Positions 29,609 to 31,979 of a stretch of 64,000 bases of DNA are shown here, piece after piece; position 1 is the first letter of the stretch; each line of letters starts with the position of its first letter. The stretch covers positions 3,018 through 67,017 of the forward strand of contig CADBEA010000007.1 in the NCBI GenBank assembly GCA_902793635.1, read 5' to 3'. Source of the DNA: an uncultured Erysipelotrichaceae bacterium. GTDB lineage: Bacteria > Bacillota_I > Bacilli_A > Erysipelotrichales > Erysipelotrichaceae. The notes below the pieces were generated by a model. The model had not been told where the DNA came from, searched no databases, and saw nothing but the letters and a program-made list of their open reading frames with translations. The position numbers and the translations under genes were made by a program.

Positions 29609-29908
29609 ATGGACCAGATCAGTATTTCTCTGAATGAAGTCAGTGAAACGGCTTCCCGCATCAGACAGCTGAACCAGATGATGTATGATGCTTTATTGGA
29701 AATGAAGAAGGAGATGAATCTTCTGTCGGGGACCTGGATTTCGGAAGGATCGGAAGAGATCCGTTCCCGCTTCGCCATGTTTGCCGGACGTTTTGACCGT
29801 CAGAAGACAGTCATTGACGAATACGCGCGATTCCTTGAACTGACAGTATCCAGCTATGATTCGCTCGAGTCGGCAATTACCGGCAATGCGGCAGGCATAC
29901 AGTATTAA
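29609..29908 (+). CDS. Second WXG100/ESAT-6-like protein
   Basis: 99 aa, AGGAGG RBS, helical, central WISEG, C-terminal YDSLE. Confidence 0.82.
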   Translation: MDQISISLNEVSETASRIRQLNQMMYDALLEMKKEMNLLSGTWISEGSEEIRSRFAMFAGRFDRQKTVIDEYARFLELTVSSYDSLESAITGNAAGIQY

Positions 29909-31979
29909 ACGTATTGTCTGCACTGTTCTGACAATGATACTGGCTGTCAGTCTGACAGGATGTCAGAAGCAGAATACTGACGGAATTCTGATGTCCGACT
30001 GGATCAGAATGATCAATGAAGAAGCCGGCATTGTCTCATACCGTCAGAAAGAACCATACTATATGAACATTGAACCGGGAACAGCCCTGTTTGACGCTGT
30101 GCAGGCAGCTGTTGAATGGGAAATCCTGGATCCGGCTGTCGCCTTTGACAGCAATGCATATCTGAACCGTGACTGGATGGCTTTTACGCTGATGAATCTG
30201 AGCGGCCGGAAGGATCATATCAGCGGATCCTATGCCGGTGATATCAGCCGCTGCCAGTTTCCCGATGCCGTTAATCAGGCGATCGCTTCCGGTTTGATGA
30301 AGACCGATGGCCGCAATCTGTTTCATCCTGAACGGAATGCCGCAAGGGATGAAGCAGAAGCGGCTCTGCATCAGGTGATCAGTTTCCTCAATCATCGAGA
30401 ACTGACAGAACAGGAAACAGAGATCAGACCAAAGGAAGAAATCGAAATCAAAGATGAAGACAGCGATTCCTTTGACCCTGTGAATAAGACTGCTTCCTTT
30501 CCGGATGTTTCGGCCGGTGATTATGTCCGGCTGAACAACAACGGAACGGATGAGATCTATCAGGTCATCGAAGAATCAGACGGGGTTCAGAAACTGTCAG
30601 TTCCGGATGTGCTGTCCATGATGGATGAAATGCATGTCAGCGGTTCCCGCAAAATCAGTTTCGAGGATGCGGAAATTATCGGGCCGGACGGGCAGACACT
30701 GTATGCGCGAAACGGTGATGATGAGGCTTCCGCGAAGATCAGCTTCATGGCTTCCCGGCCCTTAATGAAGCAGTTTCAGATCAGCGGCTATGCGGTGACT
30801 CTGTATTCCTCCGCCGGCAGTATCAGCGCTGTGGCGGAAAGAAAACTGCCGCACGGCGGAATCTTCAGCGCCGAAGTCGGTCTCAGCGGACTGCAGGTGG
30901 ATTATGAATGGAATTATGAAGACAGCAGTCTGAAAGACGCATATTTCAAAGCTGACTTTCATACAACGGAAAACTTTGCCGTGAAAGGAGTTGAACAGAA
31001 GTATCTGCAGGGTGATTTCAGCAAAGTCGATCCGGCTGACTTTCTGCATACGATCCGCGGCTTCTATCAGGAACAGAAAGATGTGATCCAGGGCACCTTT
31101 ACGCTGTGCCGCATCCGGATTCCTTTGCCGCAGGCACCGGGACTCAGTGTTACGGCTGATCTGGATTTGAATATCAACGCGGAAGGCAAAGCGGAGCTGA
31201 GTCTTGGCCAGGACAGTGTGATCGGCATGGAAGTGCGCAATGGATCGTTACGTATGATCCGCGAATGCGACGCAACACGCGAGGCACTTGTCAGAACTGA
31301 TTTTTCTTTCAAAGCCGGTGTGCATGTGGCATTGAACATGCTGAATATGTGTCTCTGTGATCTGCTGTGTGAAGCCGGGGCAGCCGGCAACGCGGCGGCT
31401 GTCGTGCATCTGTATGACGAGGAGGGAAAAAAGACGGATGCGTCGACAGACGTCGATGCCTATGCGGTAGATCTGATGTCCGACGGCAATGAGAAAGTCT
31501 TTGTATGCGCGGATCTTTCCGGCAACTGGATCCTCGATCTTTCCGTGAATTCAGCTGCTTCGGCTTGCGGGAAACTGGGTCTGAAAGGGCAAGTTCATCT
31601 GCTCAACGAACAGAACGCGCCGCTGATCAAAGGCCTGAGCGGACATTTTGAAAACTGGCAGGCAGTCAAACAATGTACCTATACCGATCATGAGAAAGGG
31701 CCCTCCGAAGACCGTCTCAGAGTGTCGTCCAATATCGTCATCGAGGACTATGCCATGACGATACAGGAGGGAACAGCAAAAGAACTGAAAGTGCTTGCCG
31801 TACCTGCCGGCTATACGCTGTCTGATCTTGTTTATGAAAGCGAAAACAGTGAAGTGGCATCGCTCAGCGGCAGTATGATCACGGCCCATCAAAGCGGCAG
31901 TACGACTGTCAGCGTATCCACCAGAGACGGTAAGTACAGGATCACCTGCAGTATACTGGTGCCGCAGGTGAACTCATGA
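29886..31979 (+). CDS. Predicted lipoprotein with SLH-like repeats, beta-rich core and C-terminal Ig-like (Big_2-like) domain
   Basis: KRIVCTVLTMILAVSLTG|C lipobox; FPDAVNQAIASGLM...FHPERNAARDEA; LVYESENSEVASLSGSMITAHQSGSTTVSV; start uncertain (ATG 29886 or ATT 29904). Confidence 0.7.
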   Translation: MRQAYSIKRIVCTVLTMILAVSLTGCQKQNTDGILMSDWIRMINEEAGIVSYRQKEPYYMNIEPGTALFDAVQAAVEWEILDPAVAFDSNAYLNRDWMAFTLMNLSGRKDHISGSYAGDISRCQFPDAVNQAIASGLMKTDGRNLFHPERNAARDEAEAALHQVISFLNHRELTEQETEIRPKEEIEIKDEDSDSFDPVNKTASFPDVSAGDYVRLNNNGTDEIYQVIEESDGVQKLSVPDVLSMMDEMHVSGSRKISFEDAEIIGPDGQTLYARNGDDEASAKISFMASRPLMKQFQISGYAVTLYSSAGSISAVAERKLPHGGIFSAEVGLSGLQVDYEWNYEDSSLKDAYFKADFHTTENFAVKGVEQKYLQGDFSKVDPADFLHTIRGFYQEQKDVIQGTFTLCRIRIPLPQAPGLSVTADLDLNINAEGKAELSLGQDSVIGMEVRNGSLRMIRECDATREALVRTDFSFKAGVHVALNMLNMCLCDLLCEAGAAGNAAAVVHLYDEEGKKTDASTDVDAYAVDLMSDGNEKVFVCADLSGNWILDLSVNSAASACGKLGLKGQVHLLNEQNAPLIKGLSGHFENWQAVKQCTYTDHEKGPSEDRLRVSSNIVIEDYAMTIQEGTAKELKVLAVPAGYTLSDLVYESENSEVASLSGSMITAHQSGSTTVSVSTRDGKYRITCSILVPQVNS

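Follow-up and report, generated by a model that had tools for sequence, protein, structure and literature searches.

The 64,000-nucleotide (nt) stretch of DNA analyzed here (the window), from an uncultured Erysipelotrichaceae bacterium, carries five tightly packed plus-strand genes between rbfA (28809-29225) and a convergent radical-SAM gene. The five genes form a module of the T7SS kind (T7SS, type VII secretion system), and its third product, a large lipoprotein, is the subject of this analysis. The lipoprotein is conserved, is specific to and co-inherited with one clade of EssC-type ATPases, and is the sole sizeable extracytoplasmic product of the module. The genes are as follows.

29293-29595, plus strand: WXG100-a, 100 amino acids (aa) counted from MRTISVEPGQ; Pfam WXG100 44.6 bits, TIGR03930 45.8 bits.
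29609-29908, plus strand: WXG100-b, 99 aa; NCBIfam NF035934 (ESAT6_2) 124.9 bits against a cut-off of 100.
29886-31979, plus strand: lipoprotein gene, 697 aa, with the ATG at 29886 as the best-supported start.
31976-35767, plus strand: EssC-type FtsK/SpoIIIE ATPase, 1263 aa; Pfam FtsK_SpoIIIE at residues 594-789, 108.6 bits.
35754-36011, plus strand: ubiquitin-fold protein, 85 aa, the EsaB/YukD/TsxB equivalent, conserved directly after EssC.

The EssC protein has a single clear FtsK/SpoIIIE domain and scores 308 bits with TIGR03928, under the cut-off of 778 for that model. Its best profile match in the PDB is B. subtilis YukB (9qks; E 1e-130, profile positions 65-908), and the EssC family profile aligns to YukB from YukB residue 90, within the FHA region. 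For the 85-aa protein, AlphaFold2 gave a model with a predicted local distance difference test (pLDDT) score of 91.7, Foldseek returned ubiquitin-like matches with template modelling (TM) scores of 0.7-0.79, and the PDB profile search found a weak match to a ubiquitin-like protein (5zmb, E 5.7e-4). The FHA-bearing EssC, the WXG100 protein and the ubiquitin-like EsaB by which a T7SSb is recognized are all present in the module.

T7SS subtypes from T7SSa to T7SSj have been described by Garrett, Higginson and Palmer in 2024 (PMC11217815). The T7SSe of Bacillota consists of TseA, A2, B, C, D, F, H, I, J and K, of which the kinase TseD, the phosphatase TseF, the DUF6382-FHA protein TseJ and the immunoglobulin (Ig)-rich TseI are always encoded in the cluster (PMC11217815). 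Profile searches of the source genome found none of the T7SSb components EssB/YukC (PF10140), EsaA (TIGR03929) and EssA (PF10661), and the genome has no LXG gene and no further WXG100 genes. With home-made profiles, neither a TseI-like, DUF4176 or LXG-like gene nor a duplicate of any of the module genes was found in the genome. None of TseD, TseF, TseJ and TseI is encoded within 29293-36011, so the module lacks the gene content of a T7SSe; kinase and FHA matches in the genome are single generic ones on other contigs. Because EssB, EsaA, EssA, LXG, DUF4176 and TseI-like proteins are all missing, the lipoprotein is the only module product with substantial extracytoplasmic mass. Judged by its genes, the system is a stripped-down T7SS variant made up of the two WXG100 genes, the lipoprotein, EssC and the ubiquitin-fold protein.

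The N-terminus of the lipoprotein, translated from the ATG at 29886, reads MRQAYSIKRIVCTVLTMILAVSLTG followed by Cys and comprises an n-region of positive charge, then a hydrophobic core, then a lipobox.

29886-29963, plus strand: signal peptide II with lipobox L-T-G-C, read from the sequence; the Cys26 codon TGT is at 29961-29963.

This N-terminus follows the rule for bacterial lipoproteins, a lipobox [LVI][ASTVI][GAS]C at the end of the signal peptide. Cys26 is invariant in an alignment of 17 sequences of 33-89% identity, and a lipobox Cys after a hydrophobic stretch can be read from the loci in essentially all of ~45 homologues, including variants with a short N-terminus. The genome encodes Lgt (PF01790, 180 bits in a profile search; LspA was not searched for). 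The lipobox reported in an earlier note, made from the letters of the window, is thus confirmed and occurs across the family. As predicted from these features, the protein should cross the membrane by Sec, receive its lipid at Cys26 from Lgt and be cut by Lsp, and the mature protein of 671 aa, which is acidic (102 Asp+Glu against 58 Lys+Arg), should be tethered to the outer leaflet of the membrane. The same note had also considered a surface protein co-exported by the T7SS itself; because the lipoprotein has its own Sec/Lsp signal, it is unlikely to be a T7SS substrate.

An open frame spans 29856 to 31979 around the lipoprotein gene. The gene overlaps that of WXG100-b, whose stop TAA lies at 29906-29908, by 23 nt, and its TGA (31977-31979) shares an ATGA with the EssC ATG at 31976, in agreement with the overlap with both neighbors that had been noticed earlier. 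Such start/stop overlaps on both flanks suggest translational coupling. An in-frame ATT at 29904, put forward in the earlier note as a start, is indeed present, but its use is unnecessary and we rejected it: the ATG at 29886 aligns with a Met conserved in homologues, and in several of them this Met is the first available start, without an upstream alternative. In practice the choice matters little, since cleavage before Cys26 removes the signal peptide. Public data hold >100 full-length clusters of the lipoprotein at 50% identity, so the gene is real; a profile search finds it as a single copy in the source genome. The public gene call for the contig (P0001, 662 aa) starts at Met36 (window position 29991, MSDWIR), downstream of the lipobox, and is probably a mis-call that loses the signal peptide, which annotation pipelines miss because of the overlap with the WXG100-b gene. 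In one Galactobacillus MAG (metagenome-assembled genome; L037:654-2782) the lipoprotein gene is split into two open reading frames of 361 aa and 310 aa; it is there either a pseudogene or wrongly assembled. A promoter and terminator scan was uninformative.

The linkage of the lipoprotein to EssC was examined in three metagenomic contexts and 33 genome loci, the latter from Solobacterium, Bulleidia, Galactobacillus, Stecheria intestinalis, Erysipelotrichaceae bacterium 7770_A6, MAGs and a few bins with other labels. Wherever the flanking sequence is long enough, the genes follow the order WXG-WXG-lipoprotein-EssC, homologues of WXG100-a standing first in all loci, and the order that includes the ubiquitin-like gene after EssC is kept in ~35 loci of Solobacterium, Bulleidia, Galactobacillus, Stecheria and other Erysipelotrichaceae, at 27-89% identity. 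We also took a census of an even sample of 201 Erysipelotrichaceae genomes from 83 genera. A match was found in 54 genomes belonging to 19 genera. In one of these genomes (G092) the match is a different, 1197-aa surface protein; in each of the remaining 53 (53/53) the lipoprotein gene is single-copy and, on the same strand, directly upstream of an EssC gene. The earlier note had asked whether the gene co-occurs with this essC clade and would have abandoned its idea had orthologues usually been unlinked; all 53 genomes, and all sufficiently flanked loci, are linked. EssB was found in 8 of the 201 genomes, always beside a separate canonical EssC of ~1440-1464 aa. In three genomes (G022, G050 and G138) the lipoprotein module coexists with a canonical EssB-linked T7SSb encoded at a different locus, which makes the lipoprotein system an independent one.

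This linkage also bears on the idea that the gene encodes an unrelated surface protein that merely happens to be located in the operon. The module sits inside a housekeeping operon (nusA-infB-rbfA ... truB-ribF) that has received unrelated inserts in some lineages (Peptidase_M3, an ABC transporter), which counts in favor of this idea. Adjacency to EssC in 53/53 genomes of 19 genera, a single origin matching the EssC clade, and linkage that is kept where the module no longer adjoins rbfA (L023, L032, L036, L042) all speak against it, and we strongly disfavor this explanation, which is extremely improbable.

Most modules lie between rbfA and truB; several are found elsewhere or with inserts after rbfA, the module still being intact. 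The radical SAM/SPASM gene on the minus strand of the window (35999-37629) shares 13 nt with the 3' end of the ubiquitin-like gene, and a PP-loop (TtcA-like) gene overlaps it in turn. A radical SAM gene follows the module in many loci; elsewhere a Peptidase_M3 gene lies between them, or an ABC transporter takes its place.

A maximum-likelihood tree was built from 48 EssCs, 30 of them lipoprotein-linked. The 30 form one clade (support of 99 in the SH-like approximate likelihood ratio test, SH-aLRT) that is nested among T7SSe-like EssCs, with the EssB-linked canonical EssCs as the outgroup. By this nesting the lipoprotein-linked EssCs have the phylogenetic affinity expected of a T7SSe, the T7SSe-like members of the tree having been assigned by the gene content of their loci, not by reference TseC sequences. 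T7SSe-like clusters are common in Erysipelotrichaceae (L044-L051, L063-L068). Their loci in this family encode a DUF6382-FHA protein, a PP2C phosphatase, a Ser/Thr kinase, an Ig-rich Sec protein with a C-terminal anchor, EssC, a ubiquitin-like protein, two WXG100 proteins, an LXG-like protein and DUF4176, a set that agrees with the T7SSe of Garrett et al. (PMC11217815). Homology links their WXG100 proteins with the pair in the window (phmmer E 1e-15 to 1e-29). Directly upstream of EssC, in the slot of the lipoprotein, they carry the TseI-like Ig-rich protein. We considered the lipoprotein as a TseI homologue and rejected this, as hhalign gave a probability of 0.2% and a hidden Markov model of the lipoprotein finds nothing in T7SSe-like loci. 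The earlier view of a T7SSb in which the lipoprotein could replace EsaA does not fit this tree; the EssC clade nests instead in T7SSe-like systems. The simplest history would be a single event in which a T7SSe-like ancestor lost the kinase, the phosphatase, the FHA protein, the small transmembrane proteins and the Ig-rich TseI, and gained the lipoprotein.

In lipoprotein-type and T7SSe-like EssCs the extracytoplasmic loop between the first and second transmembrane segments (TM1-TM2; residues ~255-268 of the EssC in the window, 32738-32779) is ~12-14 residues longer than in canonical EssB-linked EssCs, and the main lipoprotein clade has a conserved xAYxxYMxGR motif in it. The loop is a possible contact site. 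In two genomes of the source genus (G114, L057:10077-12698, and G162), the EssC adjoining the lipoprotein has only ~873-900 aa with a patchy profile match; these short forms suggest that the ATPase has been reduced further in close relatives.

Comparison with described systems places the module closest to, yet outside, known subtypes. Like T7SSe, it has two WXG100 genes, a ubiquitin-like TsxB and an FHA-bearing EssC-type ATPase, with a large Sec-exported protein encoded directly upstream of the ATPase gene. Unlike T7SSe, it has no kinase, PP2C phosphatase, DUF6382-FHA protein, small transmembrane proteins, TseI, LXG-like protein or DUF4176, its gene order is changed, with the WXG pair first, and its upstream protein is a TseI-unrelated lipoprotein composed of SLH-like, orphan beta and Big_2 domains. 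Like the EsaA/YueB of T7SSb, proposed to span the wall (PMC11217815), the lipoprotein is a large extracytoplasmic component whose gene lies in the secretion cluster. Unlike EsaA, which is a polytopic membrane protein, it is lipid-anchored, has no transmembrane segment and no sequence similarity to EsaA, and belongs to a different EssC lineage. T7SSg (TsgA1, A2, B, C and L, from Acetivibrio/Paenibacillus) is likewise a set of five genes with two WXG100 proteins, a ubiquitin-like protein, an ATPase and one extra protein that looks non-cytoplasmic, but TsgL is a DUF5050 beta-propeller and TsgC has no FHA domains (PMC11217815), whereas the EssC here aligns within the FHA region of YukB. A relationship of the lipoprotein to DUF5050/TsgL was rejected, there being no Pfam DUF5050 match. 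The earlier note knew of no T7SSb core component with this architecture, and subtypes a to j indeed hold no SLH or lipoprotein component (PMC11217815). Erysipelotrichaceae genera are not mentioned in the text or available supplements of PMC11217815, and a full-text literature search found no paper linking a T7SS to Solobacterium or Erysipelotrichaceae, or SLH domains to T7SS components, and nothing on the module. The five-gene, lipoprotein-type module is a T7SS variant undescribed so far.

The domains of the lipoprotein were delimited with the help of an AlphaFold2 model built on a 17-sequence alignment (mean pLDDT 80, predicted TM score 0.71).

29982-30395, plus strand: SLH-like helical domain, aa 33-170, two repeats and a half repeat (Foldseek, sub-threshold Pfam).
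30414-30755, plus strand: small beta domain and low-confidence linker, aa 177-290 (AlphaFold2 secondary structure).
30762-31685, plus strand: orphan long-strand beta domain, aa 293-600, the conserved core of the family.
31719-31961, plus strand: Big_2 Ig-like domain, aa 612-692 (Pfam, Foldseek, PDB profile).

In Foldseek the N-domain aligns with complete three-repeat SLH domains, those of B. anthracis Sap and P. alvei SpaA (3pyw, 6bt4 and 7sv6; probability 1.0, TM(target) 0.56-0.67, ~165 columns). By eye it contains full repeats at ~59-106 and 117-169 and an extra C-terminal-type helix at 34-48, which makes the two SLH-like repeats reported earlier a fair description. Sequence similarity is lower: in hmmscan Pfam SLH (PF00395) is confined to residues 120-157 with a score of 16.5 bits, the cut-off being 20.8, a six-frame search yields 20.7/21.2 bits, and the PDB profile gives a weak Sap match at residues 127-166. 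Although the fold is that of the S-layer and wall proteins Sap and SpaA, the lipoprotein differs from them in its sub-threshold Pfam SLH score, its single R-x-E-A repeat and its added lipid anchor. Classical SLH anchoring goes with a TRAE-type motif in every repeat and with a pyruvylated wall polymer whose synthesis involves CsaB. Of the TRAE motif, R-x-E-A is kept in the last repeat only (A-R-D-E-A, repeat 3); repeat 2 reads N-R-D-W, and the first SLH element lacks the Arg. The six-frame search found the lipoprotein to be the only SLH-like sequence in the genome, and the CsaB pyruvyl transferase (PF04230) was not found in this genome, which is 95% complete. In several genera the SLH-like N-domain is much shorter and the profile match begins only at ~position 150. 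Classical SLH wall anchoring, as assumed in the earlier note, is doubtful on these grounds.

Residues 177-600 are nearly all strand in the AlphaFold2 model, with strands of 14-23 residues, so that the long beta-strand-rich middle region seen earlier is borne out. Its first part, aa 177-290, is the least conserved of the protein (23% identity to distant members versus 36-42% in other domains). Members with a short N-terminus still match the family profile from ~position 150 on. Against the PDB, Foldseek gave the middle domain low-probability matches only (pneumolysin pore 0.06, BamA 0.04). The structural search of BFVD returned Big_2-driven matches and none for the middle domain, the PDB sequence profile nothing for residues 177-600, and a word-indexed homologue search with residues 175-605 no further annotated relatives. 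A membrane barrel was considered and set aside as not informative: the strands show the hydrophobic-polar alternation of ordinary soluble sheets, and the host is a monoderm. The C-terminal domain, previously described as Big_2-like, is confirmed as such by Pfam Big_2 (PF02368; 23.8 bits versus a cut-off of 22.8, residues 619-682), by Foldseek (lambda gpV C-terminal domain and Big_2-CBM56, probability 1.0) and by agreeing PDB-profile matches to Big_2/Ig domains.

Twelve positions of the orphan domain are invariant in the 17-sequence alignment (Q442, E449, R456, D492, H508, C541, D543, H587, E589, N590, C597 and T598). Nine of these (H508, H587, E589, D543, D492, C541, C597, Q442 and T598) form the basis of a further explanation, in which the lipoprotein is a wall-active or wall-binding accessory that opens or marks peptidoglycan over the secretion site through the polar/Cys cluster of its beta domain. 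The N-domain, being of a wall-binding type of fold, would suit this function, and there is a precedent in EssH, presented in PMC13059805 as a dedicated wall hydrolase recruited by the S. aureus T7SSb. Searches of Pfam, NCBIfam, PDB and BFVD gave no similarity in fold or sequence to a hydrolase family, and the conserved Cys residues lie in beta strands, unlike those of papain-like or NlpC/P60 sites, and may merely form a disulfide. We regard an EssH-like function as quite improbable.

Two distant relatives have a similar beta region. A MAG labelled Roseburia encodes a 922-aa protein (L043:326-5554), 22% identical over residues 10-684, that has a transmembrane anchor and no lipobox; its gene lies directly after those of a DUF5050 protein (the TsgL domain of T7SSg) and another lipoprotein, on a contig that ends 2.8 kb upstream. 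The 1197-aa protein of G092 (L058:3440-7033) combines a Pfam SLH match of 27.7 bits with a lipoprotein-like beta region and CarboxypepD_reg repeats, and the family-wide search found no EssC-type match (E <= 1e-40) in that genome. Because these SLH-like-plus-beta relatives are larger surface proteins away from a visible T7SS, they suggest that the lipoprotein was recruited from a family of wall-zone surface proteins.

The same relatives would fit an account in which the lipoprotein is a surface partner of the secreted WXG100 pair, capturing or presenting the heterodimer or serving adhesion or host contact through its beta and Big_2 domains, while export is independent of it. Its gene comes directly after the WXG100 pair, with an overlap into the second gene, the Big_2 domain is one typical of adhesins and surface proteins, and the genome has no toxin substrates, so that the WXG100 pair may itself be the functional product. 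Conservation points the other way. WXG100-b is 50-98% identical across loci, above the conservation of the lipoprotein or EssC, and in the same locus pairs the WXG100 proteins are 50-70% identical versus ~33-37% for the lipoprotein and ~27-30% for EssC, which is unlike a tight receptor-ligand pair. Moreover, the T7SSe-like relatives have homologous WXG100 pairs and no such lipoprotein. This account seems to us unlikely, though it has the most to recommend it among the alternatives.

The absence of the lipoprotein beside those homologous pairs weighs also against a role in immunity, in which it would shield the membrane of the producer from the exported WXG100 proteins. WXG100-b scores above the cut-off of NF035934, which NCBIfam names as a model of a pore-forming ESAT-6 family, and the lipoprotein gene is strictly linked to the WXG100 genes. 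Outward-facing, membrane-anchored immunity proteins exist for T7SS toxins that act outside the membrane (TelC/TipC). With 697 aa and three or four domains, the lipoprotein is far above the known size of T7SS immunity proteins, and its gene is single-copy, without the polymorphic arrays typical of immunity genes. Self-protection is accordingly a very improbable role.

We favor, with slightly better than even confidence, the reading that the lipoprotein is a subtype-defining, Sec-exported and lipid-anchored subunit on the extracytoplasmic (trans) side of a reduced secretion system of T7SSe descent, with a function analogous to that of TseI or EsaA. It would take the trans-side role proposed for EsaA in T7SSb and for TseI in T7SSd/e/j, TseI having been proposed as an EsaA-like conduit by Garrett et al. 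(PMC11217815). This role would be to organize the export site above the EssC channel or to extend it into the wall zone, with the SLH-like domain near the membrane and the long-strand beta and Big_2 domains projecting outward, and the lipoprotein would hence be required for efficient release of the WXG100 pair.

Several points weigh against this reading: (i) Strict linkage would also be expected of a substrate partner, a receptor or an immunity protein. (ii) The lipoprotein is not homologous to TseI. (iii) Several genera have a shortened SLH-like domain, and a tether to the wall is therefore no conserved requirement. (iv) The middle domain has no structural analogue that points to a conduit. 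(v) The cluster of invariant His, Glu, Asp and Cys residues could instead be the sign of a site for binding or catalysis. (vi) EssB/YukC has a cytoplasmic scaffold role (PMC12637312), and the lipoprotein cannot replace it because it has no cytoplasmic or transmembrane part.

A bolder form of the trans-side reading, which we hold to be decidedly unlikely, is that the orphan beta domain oligomerizes above the EssC channel into a ring or tube for the passage of WXG100 dimers across the wall zone. In that case a complete three-part Gram-positive T7SS, with no need of EssB/EsaA/EssA, kinase or TseI, would consist of the lipoprotein, EssC and the ubiquitin-fold protein. If true, this would be the smallest natural T7SS, with a previously unseen kind of trans-side conduit.

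Models of what is essential in a Gram-positive T7SS, and of how its substrates cross the wall, are at present built on EssB/YukC, EsaA and EssA or, for the newer subtypes, on their kinase and TseI sets. The core domain of the lipoprotein matches no solved structure and is a structural target in its own right. With its single extracytoplasmic protein, the module offers a simple test bed for the minimal composition of a T7SS, and at least two carriers, Stecheria intestinalis and Erysipelotrichaceae bacterium 7770_A6, are cultured. The lipoprotein-linked EssC clade is carried by Erysipelotrichaceae of the gut and rumen. A natural five-gene system without EssB/YukC, EsaA, EssA, kinase or TseI is widespread in this family, occurring in about a quarter of the sampled species and in 19 of 83 genera.

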